Shown piece by piece: positions 10,714 to 26,320 of a stretch of DNA of 33,408 bases. Position numbers and translations under genes: made by a program. The stretch comes from Nanobdellota archaeon (lineage in GTDB: Archaea; Nanobdellota; Nanobdellia; Pacearchaeales; GW2011-AR1). Position 1 is the first letter of the stretch; each line of letters begins with the position of its first letter. The notes below the pieces were generated by a model. The model was not told the DNA's origin, searched no databases, and worked only from the letters and a program-made list of their open reading frames with translations. The stretch lies in the NCBI GenBank assembly GCA_018901675.1, contig JAHIEH010000067.1, positions 1 to 33,408 on the forward strand. The letters are read 5' to 3'.

Positions 10714-11040
10714 TTAGTCATATTTAAATTTTGTGGTTTTTACGAATGTTTTCATCTTACAACTTCCCTCTCCTTCCTCTCTTTCTTCCCCCCTCCCCCT
10801 CACCTCACCCATAAACTTACCGCAAACTTCGCAAACAATGCATCTCTTGCCATTAATGATTTTTCCTTCAAAATGAGCGCAGCAGCAACCGCTATGGAAA
10901 AATGTTGCTTCTTTATTGCAAAGCTTGCATTTTTTAGCTGGTTTAATTGCTTTAGCTGTTTTTGTCGTTTTGGTTGTTTTTTGTTTCTTATTTCTTTTTG
11001 TCATCTTCAATTTCTCCCTTTTGCTCAAGCTTACACTCAT
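10714..11040 (-). CDS. Basic N-terminus plus Cys-rich zinc-ribbon-like small protein
   Basis: The ATG at 11040 overlaps the AAA+ gene stop as ATGA. An alternative ATG at 11004 sits in the conserved TTGAAGATGA context. Lys/Thr-rich basic tract, then CKLCNKEATFFHSGCCCAHFEGKIINGKRCIVCEVCGKF. The C-terminus reads into a purine-rich repeat. Confidence 0.4.
   Translation of the reverse strand: MSVSLSKREKLKMTKRNKKQKTTKTTKTAKAIKPAKKCKLCNKEATFFHSGCCCAHFEGKIINGKRCIVCEVCGKFMGEVRGRGEEREEGEGSCKMKTFVKTTKFKYD
10998..11040 (-). repeat. Junction element copy L3
   Basis: Minus strand reads ATGAGTGTAAGCTTGAGCAAAAGGGAGAAATTGAAGATGACA. It aligns by eye with copies at 12406 and 15581 (about 32 of 38 nt, with one indel). 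Confidence 0.75.
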
Positions 11041-12311
11041 TTTATACTCCTTGCGGAATTCATCGCTAAAAGCCATTTCCAAACAGGCTTTATAATTATC
11101 TTCTTGCCATTTATATTTTCTTCGCCTTCTTTATCTAATGTAAGAATAATCCCTTCTTTAAGAGTATATTTCTGCATAGCTTCCAAAAGACCTTCGATTT
11201 CTCTCTTTTTTGTCATAGGGCTCTCTAAATTTAGACAAACCTGAATTGCCTGAGTTATTTTTAGCCCTTTTTTAACAATAAAATCACATTCTTTTTTGCC
11301 TAAATGATAATAAACTTCGAAACCTTCTTTTAACAATTCTATAAAAACTAAATTTTCTAGTCTTTGCCCCCTATTTTCTATAAAGTTAAATGCGACTGTT
11401 TTAAGAAAGCTATTGTCTAAAACATAAAATTTAGATGAAGAAACCTGTTGTTTTTTTAATGAATAATCAAATCTATTGATAGTTGAAGCGAGAAAAACCC
11501 CCTTCATATATTCAATGTAATTTTTTATCATGCTTAAACTCTTTATTCCAGAAATTATCTTTAAAGTAGAATAAGAATAAACTTTGCCCACATTTGAAAA
11601 AAGATATAAGATAAGATCTTTAATCTCCTTTGTTTTTTTAATGTGATATCTTTGAATTATATCCTTATTAAGTATGTCTTCAAAATATTGTTTGGACAAT
11701 TCCAAATCATTGTTCTTTATTACTAAAGGGAAGCCCCCCTTTTCAAAATACTCTTCAAAGGCGCCCATCAAAATTATTCTTTCATTAGAAGTTTTTGGAT
11801 TTTCTTGAATGTTTTTAAACCTTAAAAATTCTTTAAATGAAAAAGGGTATAGTCTTAGAACTTTATTTCTTCCTGTTAAAAATGTTGAGATTTCTGAACT
11901 TAATAAACTTGAATTTGAGCCGGTTACAAAAACTTTTATTTTTTTGGCAAAGAGGTTATTAACCCATCTTTCCCAAGAAGGAATGTTTTGAATTTCATCA
12001 AAAAAAAACACAACCTCAGACCCAATGCTATGCAATTCTTTAGCAAAGTCTTCTATATCCTGAAAATTTTCAATCTTAAAGTCTGTAAATCTGACATCAT
12101 CAAAGTTTATGTAAATCTTTTTTTTATTGATTTTATTGGAAATAATCTTTAAGAGGGTGCTTTTTCCGCATCTTCTTATGCCACTTATGATTACAATTTC
12201 ATTTCCTCTTAAATAAGGCTCTAAGGATATTTCTCTTTCTATTAACTCTTCTTCCTTATTGAATAGTTCTTGTTGTTCATTCAAAAGTTCATATAATTTT
12301 GTTTTTTCCAT
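11037..12311 (-). CDS. AAA+ superfamily ATPase of the COG1373 / DUF4143 type
   Basis: 424 aa. Walker A is SGIRRCGKSTLL and Walker B is VVFFFDEIQ. The C-terminal restriction-endonuclease-like module (KECDFIVKKG...AIQVC) is typical of DUF4143 ATPases. Confidence 0.8.
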   Translation of the reverse strand: MEKTKLYELLNEQQELFNKEEELIEREISLEPYLRGNEIVIISGIRRCGKSTLLKIISNKINKKKIYINFDDVRFTDFKIENFQDIEDFAKELHSIGSEVVFFFDEIQNIPSWERWVNNLFAKKIKVFVTGSNSSLLSSEISTFLTGRNKVLRLYPFSFKEFLRFKNIQENPKTSNERIILMGAFEEYFEKGGFPLVIKNNDLELSKQYFEDILNKDIIQRYHIKKTKEIKDLILYLFSNVGKVYSYSTLKIISGIKSLSMIKNYIEYMKGVFLASTINRFDYSLKKQQVSSSKFYVLDNSFLKTVAFNFIENRGQRLENLVFIELLKEGFEVYYHLGKKECDFIVKKGLKITQAIQVCLNLESPMTKKREIEGLLEAMQKYTLKEGIILTLDKEGEENINGKKIIIKPVWKWLLAMNSARSIK

Positions 12312-12405
12312 GATTTCTATTGTCTTTGAGAGTTTATAAACCTTTCTTTGTAATTTAATAACTCTTTATAAACATATGTTAAATGGAAATTAACTATATG
12401 GTTTC

Positions 12406-12445
12406 TTATTCATCTTCAATATCTCCCCTATTGCTCAAACTAACA
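12406..12445 (-). repeat. Junction element copy L1
   Basis: The plus-strand 18-mer TTATTCATCTTCAATATC is identical to 15581-15598. About 33 of 38 nt match overall. It encodes the last 12 codons plus the stop of the Nudix gene. Confidence 0.85.
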
Positions 12446-12861
12446 TCCCCTAAAATACTGACCAATTTTTCCTTGCTATCTATACTTTCATCCCAATCAA
12501 TTTGCTCTATAAACTTTTCCTTGGAAAGCCACCTAAACTCTGTATGCTCTCCGCTTAGCTTAGGTATCGCTTCTTTAACTTTGATAAGAAATGCTCTTTC
12601 TTTGTGCATCTTGCCAGAATTCTTTGGCCATTCATATTCCCCAAGATAATCTGTTTTTTTAATTTCTAATATCTCTAATCCTGTTTCTTCTTTTACTTCT
12701 CTTCTTATTGCTTTCTCTTCACTTTCATTCTTCTCAACACTTCCAGTAACAACAAACCAAATATCTACTTTAAGCCATTTAGGGTTTGTTCTTAGAATTA
12801 AAAAATTTCTTTTATCAGAATAAATTATTGCCATAATCTTTGGATTGGTTTTGTTATTCAT
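12406..12861 (-). CDS. Nudix hydrolase
   Basis: Nudix box GSVEKNESEEKAIRREVKEETGLE. I place the start at ATG 12861 (MNNKTNPK), preceded by GGAGG. The track extension to 12972 is read-through of a purine-rich repeat. The C-terminal tail VSLSNRGDIEDE is encoded by the junction element. Confidence 0.8.
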   Translation of the reverse strand: MNNKTNPKIMAIIYSDKRNFLILRTNPKWLKVDIWFVVTGSVEKNESEEKAIRREVKEETGLEILEIKKTDYLGEYEWPKNSGKMHKERAFLIKVKEAIPKLSGEHTEFRWLSKEKFIEQIDWDESIDSKEKLVSILGDVSLSNRGDIEDE

Positions 12862-12935
12862 CTTCAATACCTCCTCTCTTCCCCAAACCTCCTCTCTTTT
12901 AATAACCTTTTTGTAACCCCCTCCCTTAATCTTAG
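12854..12935 (-). repeat. Junction-core copy L4 fused to a purine-rich tract
   Basis: TTATTCATCTTCAATA lies at 12854-12869. Upstream on the minus strand is GGGAGGGGG...AGAGAGGAGGTTTGGGGAAGAGAGGAGG. It provides the Nudix gene start context. Confidence 0.7.
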
Positions 12936-13016
12936 ATATATAACATGCCCTGTAAATTATCACACTTAACAATCTCTTCCCAAAACTCTTTTAAACTTCT
13001 TTATCTTTGATAAACC

Positions 13017-13916
13017 ATGGGAGATGAAAAGAAAGAGAATCAAAAAGATGAACAAGAAGGCGAAAATACACATATAGCTATTTTTAATGGAAAAGCTATA
13101 AGAAGAAAACTTGTTGGTGATAAATGGTTCTTTTCAGTTGTTGATATTATCCGGGTTTTGACTGATAGTGTTGACCCAAAAGATTATTGGTATAGGTTAA
13201 AAGTAAGAGAGAAAGAATCTTCAGAAATTGAGCTATCGACATTTTGTCGACAACTGAAGCTCAAATCAGGAGACGGGAAAGAGTACGAAACAGATTGCGC
13301 AGACACAGAAGGTATATTCAGAATAATTCAATCAATTCCTTCAAAAAAGGCAGAGCCGTTTAAAAGATGGCTTGCAAAAGTTGGTTATGAAAGAGTGCAG
13401 GAAATTGAAAACCCAGAACTTGCACAAGAAAGAATGAAAAATCTTTATGAGCAAAAAGGATATTCTAAAGACTGGATTGAAAAAAGATTAAGAGGAATTG
13501 CTATAAGGCAGGAGCTGACAGACGAGTGGAAGAATAGAAAGATAAAAGAAGAGAAAGAGTTCGCAATCTTAACAAATGAAATAAGCAAAGCAACTTTTGG
13601 AAAAACAGTTGAAGAGTATAAGAATTTTAAGAAACTAAAAAGAGAAAATTTAAGAGATCATATGGATGATTTAGAATTAATTTTTAGTATGCTTGGAGAG
13701 GCAGCAACTACTAGAATTACTAAAACAAAAGATACTCAGGGTTTTGGAGAAAATAAAATTGCAGCCAGACAAGGTGGAGAAGTTGCTGGAAATGCAAGAA
13801 AAGAGCTTGAATTAAAAACAGGAGAGAGTGTTCTTAATGAGGATAATTTTTTAAATCTTCCAGAAAAACTAAAGAAAAAAAGGAAGAAACTCCTTGAACA
13901 AGTAGAGATTATTTAA
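13017..13916 (+). CDS. Bro-N domain protein (prophage antirepressor / DinD-like family)
   Basis: The N-terminal Bro-N pattern is IAIFNGKAIRRKLVGDKWFFSVVDIIRVLTDS. The downstream block PFKRWLAKVGYERVQEIENPELAQERMKNLYEQKGYSKDWIEKRLRGIAIRQELTDEW is typical of this family. Confidence 0.75.
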   Translation: MGDEKKENQKDEQEGENTHIAIFNGKAIRRKLVGDKWFFSVVDIIRVLTDSVDPKDYWYRLKVREKESSEIELSTFCRQLKLKSGDGKEYETDCADTEGIFRIIQSIPSKKAEPFKRWLAKVGYERVQEIENPELAQERMKNLYEQKGYSKDWIEKRLRGIAIRQELTDEWKNRKIKEEKEFAILTNEISKATFGKTVEEYKNFKKLKRENLRDHMDDLELIFSMLGEAATTRITKTKDTQGFGENKIAARQGGEVAGNARKELELKTGESVLNEDNFLNLPEKLKKKRKKLLEQVEII

Positions 13917-15150: not shown

Positions 15151-15588
15151 CTAAACCCCCCATTTCCTTACAACAACGCCTATAAAAGGCCGCTCATCAT
15201 TATATGGATCTTTTTTAGCATCAATTATCTCTACTTTCAGCTCTTTTATTTGATTTGAGTTATTGAAAGTTATTTTATCTAAAATAGAAATCACGCTTTC
15301 TGAAATATCCAAAATATTAGCAGATAAGTCTCCGAGATAGCAACTTAAAACTATCTTTATTTCATCATTAAAGAATCTTTTCATGCCAGGAAATTGTGTC
15401 TTTGTTATTACTTGTCTAATAAATGTCTTTTCCTTGGATGTTAATTTTTTAAAAGATTTGGGTAAAACTTCTATAGGAAAAGCAAGATAGTCTTTATTTT
15501 TATCACACTTTGGAATAACTTCCACTACTTTTTCTACAATTTCTTTATTCTCTATCAATTCTTCGATATTATTATCTTTTTTATTCAT
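15151..15588 (-). CDS. Hypothetical protein, no recognisable domain
   Basis: The track start is TTG 15594. The ATG at 15588 (MNKKDNN) sits inside the junction element and overlaps the 3' end of the nuclease gene by 8 nt. Confidence 0.5.
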   Translation of the reverse strand: MNKKDNNIEELIENKEIVEKVVEVIPKCDKNKDYLAFPIEVLPKSFKKLTSKEKTFIRQVITKTQFPGMKRFFNDEIKIVLSCYLGDLSANILDISESVISILDKITFNNSNQIKELKVEIIDAKKDPYNDERPFIGVVVRKWGV

Positions 15589-15620
15589 CTTCAATATCCC
15601 TTCTCTTGCTCAGACTAATT
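15581..15620 (-). repeat. Junction element copy L2
   Basis: Minus strand reads AATTAGTCTGAGCAAGAGAAGGGATATTGAAGATGAATAA. It encodes ISLSKRRDIEDE plus the stop of the nuclease, and in the +1 frame the ATG of the next gene. Confidence 0.85.
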
Positions 15621-16768
15621 CTCCAATCTTTCTCTATCTTAACCTTATCTTTAATTTCATCCTCAATTTCTCCCCTGAGAACTTTGCTGTTAAGCTTTGG
15701 ATAGCAAACCATTGAGCATTCCTCATAGATACCTTTGTCTTTCATCAGCTTTATGAAAGCTTCTTTGTCTTTTCCCTCAGGCATAACAATTTTGTCAAAC
15801 TCCTTAACAGATGCTTTTGCATTGCTCCCATAAATAACATCAATTCCTTTTTGCTTGGCAAACCCAATTAACTTGGTTCTTAATTCATCTTGTGTTTCTT
15901 CTAGTTCAGAAAGCTTAGCTTTAACCTCTGCAAACTCATCAACAAATTTCACTCCTTGATCTTCTTTAAATTCTTCAACTGGTTTTTCTTCTATTTCTGC
16001 AAGATGCTTGAAACTCGGGCACTCTGATTTATAACCACACCAATCGCATAATTTTGTAGTGTTTGTAGGAAAATCATTCTCTTTAGTTGCTTCTTCTATT
16101 TCCTGGATAGTTTCCATAACCTCTTGCTGCAATTCCTTAAGCTGTTCGTTTGTTCTCTCGCTGGTTATCTCTTTATCAAAAGCAAGCATATGCCATTTTA
16201 AGATAACTTTTTTAGCATCCTTGAATTTATCTTTAACCCATATAGAATACATTGCTAATTGCCTGTCTGAATCAGCTTCTTCTTGCAGCTTTATTCTTGC
16301 ATTTGTCTTATAATCACAGACAAAATAAGTATCTCCTTTGCATCCTAACTTGTCTATCCTTACATGCCAGGAATTTCCATCAGGCAAAGTCAACCTGTCT
16401 TGAGTTTCTAATCCAAGAATTGTCATGTCATCATCTTTATGAGAATCATAATAATCGGAAATATATTTCTCCCCCATTTTCCTGTAATTATCAGCTTTAA
16501 GCCCTTCATCTTCTTTAGCAATTAAAATGTCATCAGAATACTCTTTTTCCCATAAATCCCTGTAAAATTTTATTAGAATTTTCTTTTCAACCCTTTTCTT
16601 AAATTTCTTATCCTTGTATAGCTTTTCCAGGGTTTGATGCACTAAATCACCCATAAAAGCTTCAATTGTAGTCTCTATTTCAGGTTTAATTTTATCTATA
16701 TAATGAAGCTTATACTGATACGGGCATGTTTCAAAAGTGTTTATTCTTGAATTTGAGTATGTTGCCAT
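15581..16768 (-). CDS. Cas4/AddB-like PD-(D/E)XK nuclease with 4-Cys Fe-S cluster motif and about 130-aa C-terminal extension
   Basis: The N-terminus SRINTFETCPYQYKLHYI supplies the first Cys. Nuclease motifs are HVRIDKL...YFVCDYKT and QLAMYSIW. The C-terminal Cys triad is CDWCGYKSECP. No cas1, cas2 or CRISPR array lies nearby. Confidence 0.75.
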   Translation of the reverse strand: MATYSNSRINTFETCPYQYKLHYIDKIKPEIETTIEAFMGDLVHQTLEKLYKDKKFKKRVEKKILIKFYRDLWEKEYSDDILIAKEDEGLKADNYRKMGEKYISDYYDSHKDDDMTILGLETQDRLTLPDGNSWHVRIDKLGCKGDTYFVCDYKTNARIKLQEEADSDRQLAMYSIWVKDKFKDAKKVILKWHMLAFDKEITSERTNEQLKELQQEVMETIQEIEEATKENDFPTNTTKLCDWCGYKSECPSFKHLAEIEEKPVEEFKEDQGVKFVDEFAEVKAKLSELEETQDELRTKLIGFAKQKGIDVIYGSNAKASVKEFDKIVMPEGKDKEAFIKLMKDKGIYEECSMVCYPKLNSKVLRGEIEDEIKDKVKIEKDWRISLSKRRDIEDE

Positions 16769-16933: not shown

Positions 16934-17440
16934 ATGGTTAAACAACTAGTCCATGCTTTTACTTTTGTTCAAGCAATACCTTACAAATGTAGAGCAGAAC
17001 TCATAGACGGAAATGGGGTGAGTACCAATATTCCCTATGCTAATTGCAGACAGAAAAGAGACTTATTAAAAAGATCCTTTGAGTCTTTAGGGTATAAGAC
17101 TAAGGAGCTTGACGCTATTTTTGATTGGACTGACTTACCTCTCCCTGGATATATCTTAAAAATATTAAAAAAATCTGGGACAAAACAAAAACATCATTTA
17201 TTAGAAGTTAAAGTAAATGACAAATGTATAAAAATAGACCCGACATGGAATTTAGAGCTGAGAGATAAAGGATTTCCTATAACTGTAAGCTGGAATGGTG
17301 AAACAGACACAAAACAAGTTTCATTTGGCAGAATAATTTATTATGATCCTAAAATTCAAAGAGTAACCTTGCTATATTTTCCAGAAGAAAGAGAGAATTT
17401 TACTAGAGAATTTAACAAATGGATTGGTTGGAAATATTAA
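16934..17440 (+). CDS. Transglutaminase-like (papain-fold Cys-His-Asp) protein
   Basis: 168 aa. Candidate triad: ANC38RQK, HHLLEVKV, and KIDPTWN (the H-x-W/L-x-E...DPT pattern of transglutaminase-core domains). Confidence 0.5.
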   Translation: MVKQLVHAFTFVQAIPYKCRAELIDGNGVSTNIPYANCRQKRDLLKRSFESLGYKTKELDAIFDWTDLPLPGYILKILKKSGTKQKHHLLEVKVNDKCIKIDPTWNLELRDKGFPITVSWNGETDTKQVSFGRIIYYDPKIQRVTLLYFPEERENFTREFNKWIGWKY

Positions 17441-17514
17441 TTATCTCTTGTTTGTTACCACTTAATAATTATTAAAAGAAAAGATTTAAAAGGTTATAGA
17501 CGTATTACTTTCAC

Positions 17515-18699
17515 ATGGGAGATATATGTAATTTTATGCAAGTAAATGCCGAAAATACTGAAAAATCTTATGCTTATTCTAATGATTTTCAGATTTCTAC
17601 ACAAATGAAAAGCTGGATGGCTATAAATCCGAGTTATGGATGTCCATGGGATTGTGTTTATTGCATACAACATAAAGATAAATTTTTTGATATGTCACAA
17701 TATAGGAAGGTGCATAAGGTAAAAATAGAAGGAGAACTATGCACTCCAGAAGATATAGTAACCGAGATAATGATCAATCCCAGAATTACTTCCAGAACCC
17801 CCATAGTTCTTTATAATTTTACAGACCCTTTTTTGCCTCAAAATACTCGTGACCTTGAAAATACCTTAAGTCTTCTAGATAAAAGAAAATTTACAAATAT
17901 TATCGGCTTAATTACAAGAACCTTTGCAGACACGGATACTTTGGATGTTATAGCAGATTTGAAGTATCTAAGACCTATTGTTATGGTCTCCTATGCAGGA
18001 TATGATAATGTGGAAATTGAGAGGGGCCCACTAAATAAAAGGATAGAACTTGTTAAAGAGCTAAAAGATAGAAAAATTAAAACCCTTCAGTATCTTAGGC
18101 CGATAGCTAAAGAATGGTTGGAAGAAGATCAGTTCAAAAAAGCTAGAGATGCAATAGGCCATTTAGTTGATGGAGTAGTAATGTCCGGAATAAGATTGAC
18201 TCCAGAGATAATTGCTAAGATAAATGCTAGAAGACTGCCTGTTCCAGAAGTAACTAATTTTACAAATAAATTTTTCCCAAAGGATTTACAAGAAAAGATT
18301 ATGGAGATCTATCAAGGATTTGCTCCAGTGTATCGATATACTAGTTGTGCGGTTTCATCTACTTTTGGAGTTCCAGATTATAATGCTCACCTGGGATTTT
18401 TTAAAGAAACGCAAAATAAAGAGTTTGTGGTATGCCCTCTACCATGCAATGGAGATCAAACCAAGATATGTAATAACATTTCTTTTGATGAATCGAGATT
18501 TAAATCTTTACTTAAAAGAATAGGGCATCCAGACTTAAAGTTCGCAAGAACAACTTCCGGTGCAATAATGTTAGATAAAGAATTATCCAAATATGACTTA
18601 AGTTTTCTTAGGCATAATACCTCTTGTCATATAGATTACATTGGTAATAAACATCATATTGATCAGGTTATAAACATGGAGGTTCAATCCCAAAAATGA
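17515..18699 (+). CDS. Radical SAM enzyme, spore-photoproduct-lyase/COG1533-like context
   Basis: CxxxCxxC at 17641-17664 (CPWDCVYC), within INPSYGCPWDCVYCIQ. This resembles the NPYxGCxHxCxYCYA signature of SplB-like DNA-acting radical SAM proteins. 394 aa. Confidence 0.75.
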   Translation: MGDICNFMQVNAENTEKSYAYSNDFQISTQMKSWMAINPSYGCPWDCVYCIQHKDKFFDMSQYRKVHKVKIEGELCTPEDIVTEIMINPRITSRTPIVLYNFTDPFLPQNTRDLENTLSLLDKRKFTNIIGLITRTFADTDTLDVIADLKYLRPIVMVSYAGYDNVEIERGPLNKRIELVKELKDRKIKTLQYLRPIAKEWLEEDQFKKARDAIGHLVDGVVMSGIRLTPEIIAKINARRLPVPEVTNFTNKFFPKDLQEKIMEIYQGFAPVYRYTSCAVSSTFGVPDYNAHLGFFKETQNKEFVVCPLPCNGDQTKICNNISFDESRFKSLLKRIGHPDLKFARTTSGAIMLDKELSKYDLSFLRHNTSCHIDYIGNKHHIDQVINMEVQSQK

Positions 18700-19952
18700 T
18701 ATTTGCAAGCCTGGATTTAAATAAAAAACATTTAGACAAATTTTTATTTTCTTTGGAGGGCATAAAAAGCTGTAGATTTGATGGGGTGGAAATATGTCTA
18801 TGGGAAGACATGAATAGATTTTCTGCCCAAATAGAAGAAGCGCTTTCAGGTGAAGGTTTGAAATCTAATATCCATGGAGATTTAATGAGAATAGAAGAGG
18901 GTATGGAGAATTGCGAACAAAAATTGCAATATAGTTTACAATTCAAGAAAAGCATTAATGCTCTTAACTTAATCAGCCATCCAATAAAACCCTATACTCT
19001 TAATCTAAATGCTTCCAAAAAATTGATGGGAAAATTTAGAGAAGAGATACTTCTTGAAAATGTTAGGGGGGTTAGAAAGGCAGAAATTGACTTTTTGGAT
19101 ATGCCTATTGTGTTAGATATTGGAAATCTTGCCCTTAATGGAGAGGAAGAGCAGATATCTTCGTATATTAAACGAGTACATTGGACCCATATTCACGATT
19201 ATAAAAATAAAATAGATCACCTTCCTTTGGGGGAAGGGGATTTAAATCTAAATGAGGCATTAAAATACCTTAGTAAAATCGGATTTACAATAGAGTTGGG
19301 TTCAGTATTTCGAGAATGGTCCCAACTAAAAGAAGGATATAAACATTCAATAGATTACCTCAATAATGCATTAATTTCTAATGAAAGCTATGGTAAAAAT
19401 GTGAGATTAATGCATTTACTTAATCATATAGGTAAAGAAAAATTTGGCAATGTAATTGATATTGGTTGTGGTGAGGGGTATTTATTGCATAATATTGATG
19501 CAAAAGTCAAAAAAGGTTACGACCTTTCTCCAAAACAAATTTTTAATGATGTTCTTTATATACAACAGGATATCTGTTCGCCTTTAGCAGAAAGTGCTGA
19601 TTTAGCAATATGTAGTGAAGTAGTAGAGCATTTATCCAATGATCTATCGTTATTTAGAAATATGTATAATAGTCTTATACCCTCTGGAAAAATATTTTTA
19701 ACTACTTTAAATCGTAACACTTCGCAGGATAAATCTGAGGTGGATGAAGAAAGAGGTCATTTGAGGAGGTATGGTAGTGAATTAGAAGGAATTCTTCAAA
19801 CATGTGGATTTAAAGCAATTTCTTTCTACCCCTTTAGAAGCGAGCATTATTATAACACTAATCGTAATTTTGGATTATATAACTTAGATGAGGATGTTTT
19901 GCAAGGAAGCAAAAATGCTTCTGGATGGGTTTATTTTGGAGTTAAAGAATAA
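18696..19952 (+). CDS. Fusion protein: xylose-isomerase-like / AP-endonuclease-2 TIM barrel + class I SAM-dependent methyltransferase
   Basis: Its start overlaps the radical SAM stop as ATGA. N-terminal half: FDGVEICLW, ISHP, LLENV, LDIGN, WTHIHDY...HLPLGEGDLNL, FTIELG (TIM-barrel metal-site pattern). C-terminal half: motif I VIDIGCGEGYLL and motif DLAICSEVVEHL. Confidence 0.65.
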   Translation: MIFASLDLNKKHLDKFLFSLEGIKSCRFDGVEICLWEDMNRFSAQIEEALSGEGLKSNIHGDLMRIEEGMENCEQKLQYSLQFKKSINALNLISHPIKPYTLNLNASKKLMGKFREEILLENVRGVRKAEIDFLDMPIVLDIGNLALNGEEEQISSYIKRVHWTHIHDYKNKIDHLPLGEGDLNLNEALKYLSKIGFTIELGSVFREWSQLKEGYKHSIDYLNNALISNESYGKNVRLMHLLNHIGKEKFGNVIDIGCGEGYLLHNIDAKVKKGYDLSPKQIFNDVLYIQQDICSPLAESADLAICSEVVEHLSNDLSLFRNMYNSLIPSGKIFLTTLNRNTSQDKSEVDEERGHLRRYGSELEGILQTCGFKAISFYPFRSEHYYNTNRNFGLYNLDEDVLQGSKNASGWVYFGVKE

Positions 19953-19954
19953 AA

Positions 19955-20458
19955 ATGAAAGATTTAATTTTTATTGGTGGAGCAAAAGGAGTAGGTAAAT
20001 CAACCGTATTAGAATATCTAAAAAAACATGTTCAAATAGAAGTGGTAAATACAGGGGACCTTTTTACAAAATCGAAACAGAATGGATTAAACCCTGAAGA
20101 GGCAATAAAAGCATATCTAATTGATGTCCACAATGGTATGGTAGATACACATTATGCAGGAGGATATTCTGTAGGAAAATTCTCTAGAGGTTTATCTAGA
20201 GAAAATCTTTTAAGGATTGCAAGTGTAAAATCTATAGATTTAATTTTATTTGATTTAGATAAAAAAACTCTTTTTAAGAGAAGGTGTGGGAACAAAGAAG
20301 AAAAGTACCAAGATGTAAACTTAATCGATCTAGAACTTAAAAAAAGTAGGGAATATTTTAGGCAATATTGCGAAGATTTATTAATATCAGGACTTGTAAT
20401 TGATAATATTGATTTAGACAGAACAATGGAACTTGTTCTGGGGAGAATATATGAGTGA
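19955..20458 (+). CDS. Small P-loop kinase-like protein (adenylate/nucleoside-kinase-like fold)
   Basis: 167 aa. The Walker A motif GGAKGVGKST sits at the extreme N-terminus, with size and layout like small nucleotide or metabolite kinases. It starts 2 nt after the upstream stop. Confidence 0.55.
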   Translation: MKDLIFIGGAKGVGKSTVLEYLKKHVQIEVVNTGDLFTKSKQNGLNPEEAIKAYLIDVHNGMVDTHYAGGYSVGKFSRGLSRENLLRIASVKSIDLILFDLDKKTLFKRRCGNKEEKYQDVNLIDLELKKSREYFRQYCEDLLISGLVIDNIDLDRTMELVLGRIYE

Positions 20459-20900
20459 AGAAAAAATTAGAAAGCAGTTTATAATTGTTAAAAGCTTAGT
20501 TATAAATGATAAGGGGGAAGTGCTTTTTGTTAGAAGGAAAAAAGAAGACTTGAAGCAAGCCCATAATAAATGGGAGTTTCCGGGAGGCAAGATAGATTTT
20601 GGAGAGTCTCCAGAACAAACTGCGATACGTGAGGCAAAGGAAGAGTCTAATTATGACGTTAAAATAGATTATCTCCTCACAAAAATTTTATCTTCAAAAT
20701 GGGAATCTCCTGAAAGAGAAGCTCAACAAATTTTAATTTGTTATGTTTGCACCCTTGTTGGTGGTGAAAGCGCTTTAGGGGATCATGGGGTTAGTGAGAT
20801 AAAATGGTTTAAGGTAAATAATGCCCCGAAAGATCAAGATTGTTTGCCTGGAACAATAGACTTTCTAAACCTTTATAAGAAAACTGTAGAGCAAAAATAG
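20451..20900 (+). CDS. Nudix hydrolase
   Basis: Nudix box GGKIDFGESPEQTAIREAKEESNY. The ATG at 20451, preceded by GGGGAG, overlaps the kinase gene by 8 nt. Confidence 0.8.
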   Translation: MSEEKIRKQFIIVKSLVINDKGEVLFVRRKKEDLKQAHNKWEFPGGKIDFGESPEQTAIREAKEESNYDVKIDYLLTKILSSKWESPEREAQQILICYVCTLVGGESALGDHGVSEIKWFKVNNAPKDQDCLPGTIDFLNLYKKTVEQK

Positions 20901-20916
20901 AATTTTATAATATTAA

Positions 20917-22152
20917 ATGATACTAGATAATTTACTTTCCTACAAACCAGAAGAAGCATTGATTTTTTTAGAGAGAAAAATGAATAATGAGAATTTTGGA
21001 TCAAATGTTCAGGAGACTTACAGGCCTGATGGACCATGTGGGGGATTTGATATTCCTTTTGTACTGCTGAAAAAAGAGGGGGTAATCCATTTCCAAAATG
21101 CTCCTGACACTAAACTCCTTACTCTATTAGAGACTGAAGATGAAATAAAATTTTTCTTGCATCCTGAAATGATTTTAGATTATAAAAGTAAAAATATGGC
21201 TCATTTGGAGAATATTGCTGGTTCGGTGCGCGTCTTTCCCACTTCGTCTACAAGAACAGTTATTGCACTTGGGGGAGGTTATCCATATATGATTAAGACA
21301 GATCTTGTGAGGAGGATTGGCGATGGTGTTAAAAGATTAAAAAGATCCCATTTAGATCATATAAAAGAAATTGGGAAGGATCTTGAAGAGGTATCTATAA
21401 ATAATTTTGGATATCTTCCAGAGTCGTTAGGACTACTTTTTTCTTCTTGCAATGAAGAGGTAGGAATGGTGATAAGGGAATTTTATGCAAGACCAAGAAT
21501 TTATGAAGGAACATATCTTATACCCTTTTTCTCTCTTTTTTCTAAAGACCCTGCTTCTAAAGATGATCCTATCCTACTAAAGCAACTATTAAACAAACAA
21601 AATGATGAACATAACGAGATAGACTCGTGTCTAGAGAGAATTATTATCCCTTATGTTGAATGCTGGATGCAATTGATTTCTCAAAGGGGTTTATGTGCTG
21701 AAATGCATGCTCAAAATACCCTTCTTGAAGTAGATAAATATGGGATGCCCCTTAGGGTAATTTATCGAGATTTGCAAGATACATTCGTAGATTTAGATAT
21801 AAGGGATCAAAGGGGCTTAAAAAAAGATTTTAATAAAGGGATTATTGGTGAAAATGAAAGGCTATACCTCGTTAAAAAGACTCCAATTAAGGATAGAGAG
21901 AGGTGCAAGCAAATTTCTTATAGTCTGACATATGATTATCGGATGGCCAGAGCACTTGATTATTTTGTAGAGGCATTTAAAACAGAATACTCTGATGCAG
22001 AAGATCGAATTGTATCTGGAATAAAAAATATCTGGAATAAAAATTTTAGAGGAATGGATATTTTACCTACAAAAGCTTATCTTTTAGAAAAAAAACAGCC
22101 TAACATTGGAAAAGAACTACATTTTATTGAAGCTGATCCAAAATACCGGTAA
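20917..22152 (+). CDS. Short IucA/IucC-like (NIS-synthetase-type) ATP-dependent ligase
   Basis: 411 aa. It has FFLHPEMI (compare the HPWQ motif), FPTSSTRTV (the SxRT motif), YMIKTDL, and CAEMHAQNTLLEV followed by VIYRDLQD (the H-x-Q-N motif of the family). It is shorter than canonical members of about 600 aa. Confidence 0.5.
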   Translation: MILDNLLSYKPEEALIFLERKMNNENFGSNVQETYRPDGPCGGFDIPFVLLKKEGVIHFQNAPDTKLLTLLETEDEIKFFLHPEMILDYKSKNMAHLENIAGSVRVFPTSSTRTVIALGGGYPYMIKTDLVRRIGDGVKRLKRSHLDHIKEIGKDLEEVSINNFGYLPESLGLLFSSCNEEVGMVIREFYARPRIYEGTYLIPFFSLFSKDPASKDDPILLKQLLNKQNDEHNEIDSCLERIIIPYVECWMQLISQRGLCAEMHAQNTLLEVDKYGMPLRVIYRDLQDTFVDLDIRDQRGLKKDFNKGIIGENERLYLVKKTPIKDRERCKQISYSLTYDYRMARALDYFVEAFKTEYSDAEDRIVSGIKNIWNKNFRGMDILPTKAYLLEKKQPNIGKELHFIEADPKYR

Positions 22153-22175
22153 TTTATAGGTTTTTCTGTATCAAG

Positions 22176-23066
22176 TTAGCTATTCTTCATCTTCAAATAT
22201 TGAATTTTCCAAATTCTATATTCTTCTGATGAATTTAGGATATATCTTCTATTGGATTCGAAACATTTTTCCTTTATTAACTGGCTTATTATTTTCTCAT
22301 TAGATATTATCTTTGAAGCAAATCCTGCTTCTGCTAAGAATTTTTTGGCTTCGTCAATTGACTCAAAATAATTAAATTCTCTTCCAGTTACTTTAGCTAT
22401 TTTGTCCCTTATATTCTCTTTGCCTTTAGCTTCCTTATTCTTTTTCTTTATTCTTGAAAAATCTGGCGTTAACCACATGCCGTCTTTAGCATAGGTTTCA
22501 AAGAGGTATTTTATATTATCTCTGAATAGACTTTTCTCCTGTTTGTTAAAATACATAAGTAATCCTTCGTGAATTAGGACTAATTGCTTGCCTTTCCCTA
22601 CTTGTAGATAAAATTTCCCTATCTTGTTCATATCCTCTTTAACTAGGGGGTTAATCTTCATAAAAAACAAATTTTTGCAGTTGAGATTTTTATTTCTGAT
22701 TATATCTTTTAAGATACCCTTTTTCAACTTTATTAAATTGTTTAATTCTGTTTCAATATAAATAACATCTTTTTTACCTAAAAACTCTAAGCTTCGTGGA
22801 GATAAACCAGAAGCAATTTCTGCAATAAAAACATTATCTATCCTGGATAGCATATCATTTAATGAGATGTACCTTCCTTCTATAAAACCAATAAAATTAG
22901 AGTTATCTTTTAGGCTGTCCCCATAATCTGGCAAATCAGTTATATTATCAGAATATTTTGTGTCTATTAGCTGAACAATTTCTCTTGCAAAGGGAAGGTT
23001 TTGCTTAGCCCTCATTCTTGCGCAAAATACCGCTGTTGGGCTGATTTTAGAGAATTTCTTAATCAT
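22176..23066 (-). CDS. Class I SAM-dependent methyltransferase of the LCM/TcmP-like O-methyltransferase type
   Basis: N-terminal ISPTAVFCARMRA, then AEIASGLSPRS, IYIETELNNLIKLKK and LIHEGLLMYF, matching the order of conserved blocks in this family. Convergent with the cluster. The 3' end carries the TTGAAGATGAAG junction-like core (22181-22200). Confidence 0.55.
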   Translation of the reverse strand: MIKKFSKISPTAVFCARMRAKQNLPFAREIVQLIDTKYSDNITDLPDYGDSLKDNSNFIGFIEGRYISLNDMLSRIDNVFIAEIASGLSPRSLEFLGKKDVIYIETELNNLIKLKKGILKDIIRNKNLNCKNLFFMKINPLVKEDMNKIGKFYLQVGKGKQLVLIHEGLLMYFNKQEKSLFRDNIKYLFETYAKDGMWLTPDFSRIKKKNKEAKGKENIRDKIAKVTGREFNYFESIDEAKKFLAEAGFASKIISNEKIISQLIKEKCFESNRRYILNSSEEYRIWKIQYLKMKNS

Positions 23067-23161: not shown

Positions 23162-23368
23162 ATGGAAATAACAAAGATAAGTTCAAAAGGCCAAATTGTG
23201 ATCCCCCTTAAAATAAGAAATCAGCTTGGAATAAATGAAGGATCTGTTTTAGCAATAGATACTGCAAATGAGATGGTAATATTAAAAAAGATAGATATTG
23301 ACTTATTAAAACAATTTAACAACAGCCTATTAGACTTAAAAAAAAGCAAGATAAAAAGAGTAGCATAA
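23162..23368 (+). CDS. AbrB/SpoVT/MazE-type antitoxin-like protein
   Basis: The N-terminus MEITKISSKGQIVIPLKIRNQLGINEGSVLAID...MVILKK is the classic swapped-hairpin signature. Confidence 0.8.
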   Translation: MEITKISSKGQIVIPLKIRNQLGINEGSVLAIDTANEMVILKKIDIDLLKQFNNSLLDLKKSKIKRVA

Positions 23369-23374
23369 TCTATT

Positions 23375-23436
23375 AATAATTGATTAATACTTTCTTAATA
23401 GGTTTAATAATTGATTAATACTTTCTTAATAGGTTT
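23375..23436. repeat. Perfect 31-bp tandem duplication (2 units)
   Basis: AATAATTGATTAATACTTTCTTAATAGGTTT occurs at 23375-23405 and again at 23406-23436. Unit 2 contains the last 7 codons and stop of the RelE-like gene. Confidence 0.95.
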
Positions 23437-23732
23437 TCTAGATACTTTTTAAATTCTGGAAGATATTTTATAATTTCCTCGATTGTCTCCTGTTGGGCTT
23501 TCTTCCCCCCTAAAGCAACAATCAAAACAGCAGATAAATCATCGTAGACAAGATAGTAAATTCTTTTTTCTCGCATTCTCTTTTCGCGAAAAAAACGATA
23601 CCTCGTTTGATCTCCAACATATGGGTTTTCCTTAAGCTGAAGAAATATCTTTTTAATTATCTCCTTGTCTGAGCTAGAAAGTTTATTCATCTCTTTTTCA
23701 AAGCTTTCAGTAGCATAAACTGCATAAGCCAT
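23415..23732 (-). CDS. RelE/ParE-family toxin-like protein
   Basis: 105 aa. It has SFEKEMNKL, LKENPYVGD and KRIYYLVYDDLSAVLIVALGGKK, the family pattern. It is convergent with, not co-transcribed with, the AbrB gene. Confidence 0.65.
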   Translation of the reverse strand: MAYAVYATESFEKEMNKLSSSDKEIIKKIFLQLKENPYVGDQTRYRFFREKRMREKRIYYLVYDDLSAVLIVALGGKKAQQETIEEIIKYLPEFKKYLENLLRKY

Positions 23733-25358: not shown

Positions 25359-26117
25359 TTAACGGCCACCTTGAGTTACACCACCTAATCCAATAATAGG
25401 TGGAAGTTCTCCAACTGTTGAATGGTCAAAACCCCCAACAAAAAGTTCCTGAATTCCTCCAATAAATACACTGTTTCCACCGCCAGCACCACCTCCGGCT
25501 CGATTACCAACACCGCCAGCACCACCACCAAACCCTGCTCCTGCACCTCCTCCTTGATTACCTGCTCCTGCTTGACCATAACCACCTCCGCCTCCAGCAC
25601 TTTGTCCTGTTATCTGAGCATAACCACCTCCACCACCATATGTGCCTATTTGTCCTTGAGGAATGCCTAGAACTATTTTTGGAAGACTTTCCCCACTTGT
25701 ATTTTGCAATTGGTGATATTTAGTTTCTAAATCTTCAAAAACTTCATGTCTAAGTCTATAGGGAGTAGATATAAAAATAGTTCCGTCTGTTTGGACTTTG
25801 AAATCTAATCCTTTTTGACGCAATATTACCTTGAGTGCTGTCCTAGCGGATACATTTTTAAGTTTGATAGAAGGCACTTCTACATTTATTTTATTTTGGT
25901 TTATTCCATGATTATAATTTAGATTTTTTGCATTTTGCGGAGAATTTAAGTATCTTGCGTTTTGATTTATAGATTCTGGCGAAACTCTGACAACCTTGTT
26001 TTCTAAGGTTTTTTCATTAGCTTTCTCATTAATTTTTTCCGCAAGAGAATTGCATGTAGGAGTCCAAAATCCAAGAAGAAATGCCAAACCATAAATACAC
26101 AATTTTTTCTTCATCAT
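25359..26117 (-). CDS. Secreted or lipid-anchored protein with a secretin/STN-like N-terminal beta-alpha domain and a Gly-rich C-terminal tail
   Basis: Signal-like N-terminus MMKKKLCIYGLAFLLGFWTPTC. The block IKLKNVSARTALKVILRQKGLDFKVQTDGTIFISTP resembles bacterial secretin N-domain/STN modules. About 90 aa of GGGGGY/GAGxGGG repeats follow. Confidence 0.5.
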   Translation of the reverse strand: MMKKKLCIYGLAFLLGFWTPTCNSLAEKINEKANEKTLENKVVRVSPESINQNARYLNSPQNAKNLNYNHGINQNKINVEVPSIKLKNVSARTALKVILRQKGLDFKVQTDGTIFISTPYRLRHEVFEDLETKYHQLQNTSGESLPKIVLGIPQGQIGTYGGGGGYAQITGQSAGGGGGYGQAGAGNQGGGAGAGFGGGAGGVGNRAGGGAGGGNSVFIGGIQELFVGGFDHSTVGELPPIIGLGGVTQGGR

Positions 26118-26205: not shown

Positions 26206-26320
26206 TCCCCGTGCCCAGAGTCGAACTGGGGATCTTCCGGTTGCTGTTTTTGATTATAAACGGAACTTATCTTCAATTAAAATCTACAGCCAGACGCTTT
26301 AGCCACTAAGCTACACGGGG
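26206..26320 (-). tRNA. tRNA-Tyr (anticodon GTA) with a 42-nt canonical intron at 37/38
   Basis: Hand fold. Acceptor CCCCGTG/CACGGGG, D arm GCTT-AGTGGCTA-AAGC, anticodon stem TCTGG/CCGGA, loop CTGTAG|A. T arm CCCAG-TTCGACT-CTGGG, discriminator A. The intron (26242-26283) forms helix-bulge-helix-bulge-helix: central helix CUGU/ACAG, 3-nt bulges AG|A and CA|A, outer helix UUUU/AAAA. Exons are 37 + 36 nt. Confidence 0.9.

Follow-up and report, generated by a model that had tools for sequence, protein, structure and literature searches.

What does a reduced archaeon make with a radical S-adenosylmethionine (SAM) enzyme, a methyltransferase, a kinase, a Nudix hydrolase and a siderophore-type ligase packed into one run of genes? 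The question is raised by contig JAHIEH010000067.1 of a Nanobdellota archaeon (assembly GCA_018901675.1), of which the whole stretch of 33,408 nt analysed here is called the window. An initial annotation had read six co-directional genes and a convergent seventh, between positions 16934 and 23066, as a candidate system modifying nucleotides or DNA. All seven open reading frames (ORFs; O1–O7) were confirmed at their coordinates. Five of them, O2–O6, form a unit that recurs in other DPANN archaea around a radical-SAM enzyme of an apparently uncharacterised family. We regard the chance as about even that the encoded pathway makes a modified nucleotide or nucleoside conjugate from a nucleotide, probably for conflict.

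A compact operon of five genes

O2–O6 occupy 17515–22152 on the plus strand and are tightly packed. The features of the unit are as follows.

17486–17492, plus strand: TATA-like box TTTAAAA, read from the sequence some 25 nt before the start of O2, putative operon promoter
17515–18699, plus strand: O2, radical-SAM enzyme of 394 aa (Pfam Radical_SAM, and AlphaFold2 model searched with Foldseek)
18696–19952, plus strand: O3, predicted xylose-isomerase-like TIM barrel (residues ~1–230) fused to a class I SAM-dependent methyltransferase (~235–418)
19955–20458, plus strand: O4, P-loop kinase of the adenylate-kinase/nucleoside monophosphate (NMP)-kinase fold, 167 aa (Pfam AAA_17)
20451–20900, plus strand: O5, MutT-like Nudix hydrolase, 149 aa (Pfam NUDIX)
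20917–22152, plus strand: O6, short ATP-dependent ligase of the NRPS-independent siderophore (NIS) synthetase type (IucA/IucC plus FhuF domain), 411 aa

Read base by base, the four gene junctions agree with those first described. O2 and O3 share an ATGA overlap (18696–18699), and the TAA of O3 (19950–19952) is separated by 2 nt (19953–19954) from the ATG of O4 at 19955. The Nudix gene, starting at ATG 20451, overlaps the kinase gene, with its stop codon at 20456–20458, by 8 nt, and a gap of 16 nt lies between the TAG of O5 (20898–20900) and the ATG of O6 at 20917. Gene callers on identical contigs place the Nudix start at ATG 20451 (149 aa) and not at the upstream TTG 20433. The spacer between O1 and O2 measures 74 nt and contains the TATA-like TTTAAAA, which suggests that O2–O6 may be driven by a putative archaeal promoter of their own. 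A scan for sigma-70 promoters and terminators gave a result below the shuffled expectation, the sigma-70 model being uninformative for an archaeon.

The two outer genes do not belong to the unit. O1 (16934–17440), previously called transglutaminase-like, has no match in Pfam, NCBIfam, PADLOC, PHROGs or the PDB, and O7, previously called an LCM/TcmP-like methyltransferase, gives just a sub-threshold match of 20 bits to TIGR00027. Both are singletons in a collection of 15 billion proteins and appear in none of the related loci described below. Thus, of the proposed six-gene operon with O7 as its neighbour, O2–O6 stand as a conserved unit of five genes, whereas O1 and O7 are specific to this contig; the domain calls are likewise right at the superfamily level for O2–O6 and lack family support for O1 and O7.

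An uncharacterised radical-SAM family

O2 carries the motif CPWDCVYC, and this CxxxCxxC motif together with the fold assigns it to the radical SAM superfamily. Its Pfam Radical_SAM score of 27.4 bits narrowly misses the cut-off of 29.5, and its AlphaFold2 model, with a predicted local distance difference test score (pLDDT) of 89.6, retrieves radical-SAM enzymes in each of the top 15 Foldseek matches, all at probability 1.0. The cluster cysteines C43, C47 and C50 are invariant in 32 aligned sequences. A second invariant set, formed by C278 (in a T-S-C motif), C307, C311 and C319, lies within a C-terminal region of about 120 residues. All seven cysteines and some 20 other positions are invariant across archaeal, bacterial and fused members, which look like one family with a single catalytic design.

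Below the superfamily level, O2 could not be placed in a characterised family: Pfam, NCBIfam, PADLOC, sequence and profile comparisons with the PDB, and Foldseek against PDB and viral structures return generic radical-SAM matches only. Its structural neighbours include SuiB, pyruvate formate-lyase (PFL) activase, spore photoproduct lyase (SPL; query-normalised TM-score, TMq, 0.46) and viperin (TMq 0.40). The family profile has zero matches among PDB sequences at E<=1, O2 has none in PADLOC at E<=0.1, and the NCBIfam models PA0069 (14.8 bits, cut-off 360) and Rv2578c (12.3 bits, cut-off 430) match at E 0.01–0.06; no curated cut-off in Pfam, NCBIfam or PADLOC is reached. The viral structure library holds only generic radical-SAM folds resembling O2, and a phage origin of the enzyme was rejected after tblastn found zero matches in 50,697 phage records. 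Judging from these comparisons, O2 defines an uncharacterised radical-SAM family for which Pfam, NCBIfam and PADLOC have no specific model. Its close clade comprises 35 clusters, 52–72% identical, among 5.8 billion, and a profile search of 1.84 billion representatives extends the family to 127 clusters at E<1e-30 and 464 at E<1e-10.

Source annotations label the family 'DNA repair photolyase' (COG1533-type), and an SPL/COG1533-like context had been proposed for O2. What remains of this proposal is a generic radical-SAM likeness, as the TM-score of 0.46 to SPL equals that to PFL activase and the additional four-cysteine site is absent from SPL. In the full-text literature, we found no paper on this radical-SAM family, on the DPANN operon or on the bacterial sister operon described below; the radical-SAM effector mentioned in an eLife 2020 paper on conflict systems (PMC7159879) is a different one.

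Partner enzymes

O3 scores 57.5 bits against Pfam Methyltransf_23 (cut-off 27) and 29.2 bits against AP_endonuc_2 (cut-off 31.1), the latter match spanning the C-terminal third only. In its AlphaFold2 model (pLDDT 93.6), residues 1–230 form eight beta/alpha units, for which the best Foldseek match is L-ribulose 3-epimerase (8yec; target-normalised TM-score, TMt, 0.63). Sequence links lead to the cobamide-remodelling phosphodiesterase CbiR in NCBIfam (4e-7) and to MJ1311 in the PDB (profile, 5.4e-5). The domain is predicted to be a xylose-isomerase-like (AP_endonuc_2) barrel, with membership at the fold level only. Barrels of the endonuclease IV (Endo IV)/UVDE type had been named for comparison; neither enzyme is among the top 50 structural matches or the sequence matches, and the resemblance appears to be to sugar isomerases and epimerases instead. 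The C-terminal half is a class I SAM-dependent methyltransferase by Pfam, by its motif I VIDIGCGEGYLL and by fold. Foldseek matches it at probability 1.0 to phosphoethanolamine N-methyltransferase, BioC, RebM, Plu489x and UbiG, of which UbiG is also its sequence match in the PDB, and CmoM- and CmoB-type tRNA methyltransferases are among its weak matches.

The kinase O4 scores 39.4 bits against AAA_17 (cut-off 27) and has the Walker A motif GGAKGVGKST. A profile of the operon kinases retrieves adenylate kinases from the PDB, with full-length alignment to the archaeal enzymes 6pjw and 1ki9; O4 is nonetheless not a housekeeping Adk, because it falls short of the equivalog cut-offs. O5 reaches 75.7 bits against NUDIX (PF00293, cut-off 21.1), and its Nudix box reads G-x5-E-x7-REAKEESN, the final Gly being replaced by Asn. 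The NCBIfam MutT model matches it at 6.5e-15 and 55 bits, below the equivalog cut-off of 97.9.

O6 passes the cut-off of Pfam FhuF, the C-terminal domain of IucA/IucC enzymes (28.7 bits against 25.2), contains the motifs HAQN and STRT, and most of its relatives carry precomputed PF04183 (IucA_IucC) and PF06276 annotations. Against the PDB, the family profile finds AsbB (2.4e-12), AcsD (1.6e-7) and IucA (5e-6). Residues 92–294 of the query align to 261–461 of AsbB in a family of 380–450 aa; because the AsbB alignment begins only at residue 261, the N-terminal domain appears to be absent family-wide. O6 is therefore predicted to be a true but N-terminally truncated member of the NIS family outside any siderophore context.

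The motifs first described for these proteins (CPWDCVYC, the methyltransferase motif, GGAKGVGKST, the Nudix box and HxQN/SxRT) are all present, save for the changed last residue of the Nudix box. The statement that the set maps to no known pathway or defence system also holds, as NCBIfam and PADLOC-DB v2.0.0 give generic matches only: in PADLOC, VakA for O4 (2e-6), PDC-S07 for O5, mad2 for the methyltransferase domain of O3 and no match for O6. All partners with an assignable fold would, by analogy, act on nucleotides or small molecules.

A distant subfamily of short NIS-type ligases in DPANN archaea, about 33% identical to O6, has other surroundings (L005 6944–9275; L006 4228–9179). In L006, the ligase is preceded by a double helix-turn-helix AsnC-type regulator, a metallo-beta-lactamase-fold protein and a 555-aa radical-SAM enzyme (Radical_SAM_N2), and the set lies near genes for lipid head groups (phosphatidylserine decarboxylase, CDP-alcohol transferase and CarS). 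In L005, the AsnC-type regulator and the metallo-beta-lactamase-fold protein are found without a radical-SAM gene.

Conservation of the operon in DPANN archaea

Related loci were found by look-ups anchored on the ligase and the radical-SAM enzyme, followed by scans of species representatives and metagenomes. Synteny was assessed by all-against-all clustering of 1,554 ORFs from 112 loci in species-representative genomes and metagenomes. About 14 non-redundant loci of Woesearchaeota and Nanoarchaeota carry the operon, with protein identities of 34–72% and flanks that differ each time. The possibility that these genes are never co-localised elsewhere is thereby set aside, the gene order being found in ~14 independent contigs.

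The core of radical-SAM enzyme, methyltransferase, kinase and Nudix hydrolase is present in these loci wherever the contig extends far enough downstream. Its order is kept, with genes overlapping or nearly abutting, in all loci but L076, in which the four core genes are shuffled and a histidine phosphatase (RHG motif) is added. The loci L003, L004 and L007 have the full series of radical-SAM enzyme, TIM barrel–methyltransferase fusion, kinase, Nudix hydrolase and ligase at 42–72% protein identity amid different flanks; the Nudix proteins of related loci are 49–72% identical. The long form, with TIM domain and ligase, occurs in ~10 loci and is lacking in L008, L009, L018 and L076, and in one short version the ligase is replaced by a weakly sulfotransferase-like gene. 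The TIM–methyltransferase fusion is found in every locus with a ligase and in no complete locus without one. It comprises only 21 sequence clusters, and each one that could be traced lies inside this operon.

In L003 (9239–10345), L004 (9240–10346) and L007 (13621–14733), a U32 'peptidase' gene directly follows the ligase, and L003 (13672–14889) and L004 (13046–14245) have a second copy a few kb downstream. Characterised U32 members are oxygen-independent hydroxylases that act on RNA pyrimidines or ubiquinone precursors, and by analogy the gene suggests that the long pathway of these three loci may include a hydroxylation. It is absent from the window, in which U32, sulfotransferase-like, AsnC-type regulator and histidine phosphatase genes were also sought away from the operon and none was found. 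The unit is an invariant four-gene core with an optional module of TIM domain and NIS-type ligase, with or without U32; the window has the core and the module.

Its spread is patchy: a scan of 185,579 species representatives yielded eight DPANN loci. In none of the DPANN loci is the operon accompanied by genes for a transporter, a receptor or iron regulation. A ThyA-like gene near L074, on the opposite strand and probably a housekeeping thymidylate synthase, was not used as evidence.

Bacterial and metagenomic contexts of the radical-SAM family

In bacteria, the family is found in a sister operon of radical-SAM enzyme, DEDDh 3'-5' exonuclease and AAA_28 P-loop NTPase in ~43 proteobacterial and actinobacterial loci (L019–L059, L061–L065 and L080–L111; e.g. 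L022 7920–11027). Its last gene usually encodes an aldo-keto reductase, or else an HD-domain protein in rhizobia and Labrenzia. Thirty plasmids carry the operon, which on Streptomyces plasmids is preceded by genes for thymidylate synthase and nucleoside diphosphate (NDP) kinase. Adjoining defence genes include SIR2-HerA, PDC-S65, Gabija GajA/GajB, a CBASS cyclase with IetA, and a QatC-like gene with a RmrA/CapP-like regulator; a DUF3800 protein (PDC-S51-like), a SLOG protein, an N6 methylase of type IIG size, toxin–antitoxin modules and HNH genes are found there as well. No PADLOC model matches the bacterial or the archaeal radical-SAM enzyme, and the sister operon looks like an uncatalogued candidate defence system in culturable hosts (Pseudomonas, rhizobia and Streptomyces). 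Homology of the archaeal operon's kinase (AAA_17) to the AAA_28 protein of the bacterial one was considered and rejected (hhalign probability 33%); the likeness is limited to the P-loop, so we claim no shared module of radical-SAM enzyme and kinase.

Other members of the family are fused to conflict-type domains. N-terminal TIR fusions were detected in P0154, P0212 and P0213, and a fusion to TCAD9 and an APH-type kinase in P0221. A domain of ~200 aa with no family assignment precedes the radical-SAM domain in 14 of the 145 newly returned representatives examined, and it is through this shared domain that the TIR and TCAD9 fusions are joined to the radical-SAM enzyme.

The third context is a metagenomic low-GC cluster (L099; L102 1579–9518) that encodes, in this order, an AMP-forming ligase, a carrier protein, a deoxynucleoside kinase-like kinase, an inosine monophosphate (IMP) cyclohydrolase of the PurH/ForH type, the radical-SAM enzyme, an uncharacterised protein of 249 aa, a class I methyltransferase and an ATP-binding cassette (ABC) exporter. 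The cyclohydrolase is stand-alone and matches PurH (4ehi) at 1.6e-23 and ForH of formycin biosynthesis at 3.6e-12. This looks like a nucleoside natural-product cluster. The common denominator of the family contexts appears to be nucleotide metabolism, and two of the three are conflict-related.

A proposed pathway and its alternatives

How might these enzymes work together? In the pathway that we propose at even chances, the kinase O4 would supply or maintain a phosphorylated substrate, a task that CMPK2 and other kinases perform for viperin. The nucleotide would undergo the committed radical step at the radical-SAM enzyme O2, whose second, putative metal site of four cysteines would serve substrate binding or electron transfer. 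The methyltransferase would then methylate the intermediate. In the long form, the TIM domain may isomerise or epimerise the sugar part, and the NIS-type ligase may use ATP to couple a carboxylate, via an acyl-adenylate, with an amine or hydroxyl group on the intermediate. The Nudix enzyme would cleave pyrophosphate, either releasing the final product or protecting the cell's own nucleotide pool. The product would be an antiviral or antagonistic nucleotide analogue rather than a housekeeping compound.

A role in conflict is inferred because of the defence-island residence of the wider family, the TIR and TCAD9 fusions, the plasmid carriage, the patchy distribution and the local setting in the window. 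As to the substrate, the initial annotation had allowed either a nucleotide or a DNA base. The nucleotide link gains support from the exonuclease, NDP kinase, thymidylate synthase and HD partners of the bacterial relatives, whereas a DNA base is now less favoured: since the TIM domain resembles sugar epimerases and the methyltransferase small-molecule methyltransferases, a small molecule is the likelier substrate. The partner enzymes taken together favour a free nucleotide or nucleoside over DNA.

Several points weigh against this proposal. The chemistry is deduced wholly from the neighbours of radical-SAM family members, and the joining of the four extra cysteines in one putative metal site comes from their conservation. 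By sequence, the archaeal and bacterial operons appear to share the radical-SAM enzyme only, their P-loop proteins belonging to different subfamilies, so that carrying 'defence' from bacteria over to DPANN archaea is indirect. PADLOC gives nothing for the radical-SAM enzyme or the ligase, and its matches to the Nudix protein (PDC-S07) and the kinase (VakA) are generic. The DEDDh exonuclease of the bacterial operons and the SPL-level structural likeness would allow a nucleic-acid substrate, and the exporter-bearing variant suggests a secreted metabolite, not intracellular immunity. Other DPANN genomes carry the operon amid housekeeping genes (tRNA synthetases, ribosomal proteins and Kae1), although in genomes of 0.5–0.7 Mb such flanks are weak evidence either way.

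If the proposal is true, a new enzyme family and chemistry would be added to nucleotide-based immunity and antagonism, which to our knowledge has so far rested on viperin-type radical-SAM enzymes. Even very reduced DPANN archaea would then invest in nucleotide-modifying conflict chemistry, and IucA/IucC-type ligases and xylose-isomerase-fold domains would gain a role in nucleotide tailoring. The modified nucleotides made by such pathways would be antiviral candidates. The bacterial sister operon can be tested directly in culturable hosts and could reveal the chemistry of the family. More tentatively, and as a possibility that we do not expect to prevail, O2 would be the founder of another immune family of radical-SAM enzymes besides viperin, to which it is unrelated; this family, with members in both DPANN archaea and bacteria, would make a new class of modified nucleotides. 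Lineage-specific modules would diversify the product: methyltransferase, Nudix, TIM domain and NIS ligase in DPANN archaea, exonuclease with aldo-keto reductase or HD protein in bacteria, and TIR fusion elsewhere. On this broader reading, the DPANN operon would be the first nucleotide-analogue pathway of defence or antagonism described in these reduced symbiotic archaea, and with O6 an IucA/IucC-type ligase would be seen for the first time in a role other than siderophore synthesis. The chemistry of the operon could prove categorically new.

Two other explanations deserve to be weighed, and we consider each of them unlikely. The first is that the operon acts on nucleic acid, with the radical-SAM enzyme repairing or modifying a DNA or RNA base or lesion in the manner of SPL, the MutT-like Nudix enzyme sanitising the pool, the kinase being a polynucleotide or nucleotide kinase and the methyltransferase a base or ribose methylase; where present, U32 would hydroxylate C5 of a pyrimidine, the reaction of TrhP and RlhA on RNA. 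The 'DNA repair photolyase' label points this way, as do the place of SPL among the best structural matches of O2 (TMq 0.46), the DEDDh exonuclease always found in the bacterial operon, the DNA methylases that sometimes adjoin it, the affinity of the Nudix protein to MutT, the U32 genes after the ligase in three DPANN loci and the weak CmoM- and CmoB-type matches of the methyltransferase. However, O2 resembles SPL no more closely than it does PFL activase or SuiB, it lies hundreds of bits under the cut-offs in the NCBIfam SplB, PA0069 and Rv2578c families and belongs to none of them, and the four-cysteine site of its family is not found in SPL. The methyltransferase is nearest to small-molecule methyltransferases, and among the top 50 structural matches the TIM domain finds sugar epimerases but no Endo IV. 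The NIS ligase and NMP kinase of the operon, like the carrier protein, IMP cyclohydrolase and ABC exporter of the metagenomic variant, have no obvious role on a polymer, and the patchy distribution counts against housekeeping RNA modification.

The second, to which we likewise assign a low probability, is a small-molecule cluster serving the physiology of the archaeon or its interaction with a host, with no conflict role and no need for a nucleotide substrate. It could take the form of a siderophore-like NIS metabolite, of cofactor salvage or remodelling, or of modification of a surface glycan or lipid head group. O6 is a true relative of the IucA/IucC-FhuF enzymes, and the pairing of a TIM barrel with a NIS ligase recalls the petrobactin asb operon, in which AsbF, a xylose-isomerase-fold enzyme, stands beside AsbA/B. 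The match of the TIM domain to CbiR, the resemblance of the methyltransferase to phosphoethanolamine, BioC and UbiG-type enzymes, the sulfotransferase-like protein that takes the place of the ligase in one variant, the distant ligase subfamily near lipid head-group genes and the housekeeping flanks of other DPANN genomes fit this explanation as well. Yet ligase and TIM domain are missing from four or five of the ~14 loci, and therefore appear to tailor the product rather than to define the purpose of the operon. Both the core of NMP kinase, Nudix and radical-SAM enzymes and all remaining settings of the family speak for nucleotides and conflict, and the operon is too rare for a cofactor pathway. 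The siderophore-like alternative raised at the outset is unlikely in its classical form, because the ligase is optional and transport genes, like receptor and iron-regulation genes, accompany the operon in no DPANN locus. Should a small-molecule role be the true one, a biosynthetic capacity of this kind would nonetheless be unusual in a DPANN genome.

That O2–O6 are unrelated neighbours packed together by genome compactness is highly improbable: DPANN genomes are gene-dense, short overlaps are common in them and O1 and O7 are indeed unrelated neighbours, but the same four or five genes co-occur in ~14 independent contigs at 34–72% identity with differing flanks, and the TIM–methyltransferase fusion is confined to this operon in every traceable locus.

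Genomic neighbourhood of the operon

A phage-like block with a Bro-N protein and a PD-(D/E)XK exonuclease lies upstream of the operon, and a MazE/ParE pair downstream. The surrounding features of the window are the following.

6716–9418, minus strand: type IIG (Eco57I/MmeI-like) restriction-modification fusion, 7.5 kb upstream of the operon
11037–12311, minus strand: AAA_14/DUF4143 ATPase, in the upstream half of the island
12406–12972, minus strand: second Nudix gene, unrelated to O5, in the upstream half of the island
13017–13916: Bro-N domain protein (phrog_15286, E 6e-91)
15581–16768, minus strand: PD-(D/E)XK nuclease gene
23162–23368: MazE-like gene
23415–23732: ParE-like gene
25359–26117, minus strand: STN (secretin/TonB N-terminal) domain protein, secreted-looking, with a long Gly-rich low-complexity tail
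26206–26320, minus strand: intron-containing tRNA of 115 nt, found by Rfam and missed by ARAGORN

The description of a defence island thus holds for this window; it does not extend to the archaeal operon in general, which has housekeeping flanks in other DPANN genomes. Homologues of the Bro-N protein, 61–69% identical, adjoin the radical-SAM gene in two other DPANN contigs (L012 4819–5658; L015 2224–2701), so that the operon tends to neighbour the same mobile-element-type gene. A homologue of the AAA_14 protein, 28% identical, is found close to the operon in L018. The window also contains a thermosome gene, which, together with the intron-containing tRNA and the GC content, fits a nanoarchaeotal (DPANN) origin. 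The GC content of the window is ~31% and flat along its length, and there is therefore no compositional trace of recent transfer; a search of the flanks of the region for att-like direct repeats gave none.

A 42-nt repeat, 79–86% identical, occurs at three minus-strand gene junctions (12402–12443, 12850–12891 and 15577–15618). The second Nudix protein and the PD-(D/E)XK nuclease share the C-terminus ...SLS[NK]R[GR]DIEDE*, and the stop codons at the repeat junctions overlap the MN[NK]K start of the following gene. The repeat may be a recurring cassette junction or a common C-terminal tail. At 23373–23434, a perfect 31-nt tandem duplication (TTAATAATTGATTAATACTTTCTTAATAGGT x2) starts between the MazE-like and ParE-like genes and extends into the 3' end of the latter. 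The STN domain of the protein at 25359–26117 is unusual in archaea.

Comparison with known systems

Against SPL and COG1533 enzymes, the likeness consists of the source annotation, the top structural matches and a CxxxCxxC motif near the N-terminus of O2. The differences are an identity of 14% at TM 0.46, PA0069 and Rv2578c models at noise level, four additional invariant cysteines and operon partners that are small-molecule enzymes. The NIS synthetases AsbB, AcsD and IucA share with O6 the catalytic core with H-x-Q-N and S-x-R-T and the FhuF-type C-terminal domain, and co-occurrence with a xylose-isomerase-fold TIM barrel is a further trait in common with petrobactin clusters. In contrast to these synthetases of ~600 aa, O6 has ~410 aa, its N-terminal third is missing, and it is optional and embedded in an operon of radical-SAM enzyme, kinase and Nudix hydrolase that has no second synthetase, transporter or receptor.

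The pathways of thymidine hypermodification in phages, built from a 5-hmdU kinase, radical-SAM and transfer enzymes, likewise combine a P-loop kinase with a radical-SAM enzyme, and thymidylate-synthase homologues stand by the Streptomyces sister operons. They differ in that the phage records hold no relative of O2, O4 has an adenylate-kinase fold and the operon lacks aGPT-Pplase and DNA glycosylase-type partners.

Closer in logic are the viperins and prokaryotic viperins (pVips), which produce 3'-deoxy-3',4'-didehydro-NTPs from NTPs. Here too, a P-loop kinase of the NMP-kinase type goes with a radical-SAM enzyme, the wider O2 family resides in defence islands, and the logic proposed would be the same (a phosphorylated nucleotide, radical alteration and an antiviral analogue), with O4 weakly matching VakA. 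However, O2 has no PADLOC match, viperin structures rank 30th or lower among its matches, under SPL and PFL activase, and O2 has the extra invariant four-cysteine site and a C-terminal domain of ~120 aa. Viperin systems also have no obligatory methyltransferase, Nudix, TIM or NIS-ligase partners.

Those partners recall nucleoside-antibiotic biosynthesis, in which a nucleotide precursor meets a pyrophosphohydrolase, one or more methyltransferases and a ligase that attaches an acid or amino acid at the expense of ATP. The puromycin cluster has the Nudix enzyme Pur7, methyltransferases and the ligase Pur6, and that of formycin has ForH; a ForH/PurH-type cyclohydrolase, a carrier protein and an exporter stand beside one relative of O2 in the metagenomic cluster. 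The differences are that no enzyme is orthologous to those of puromycin or formycin save the ForH-like protein of that variant, that the host is a reduced DPANN archaeon and not an actinomycete, and that the DPANN operon has no exporter or resistance gene. Although a member of neither group, the operon works most like a viperin with its kinase or a nucleoside-antibiotic pathway.

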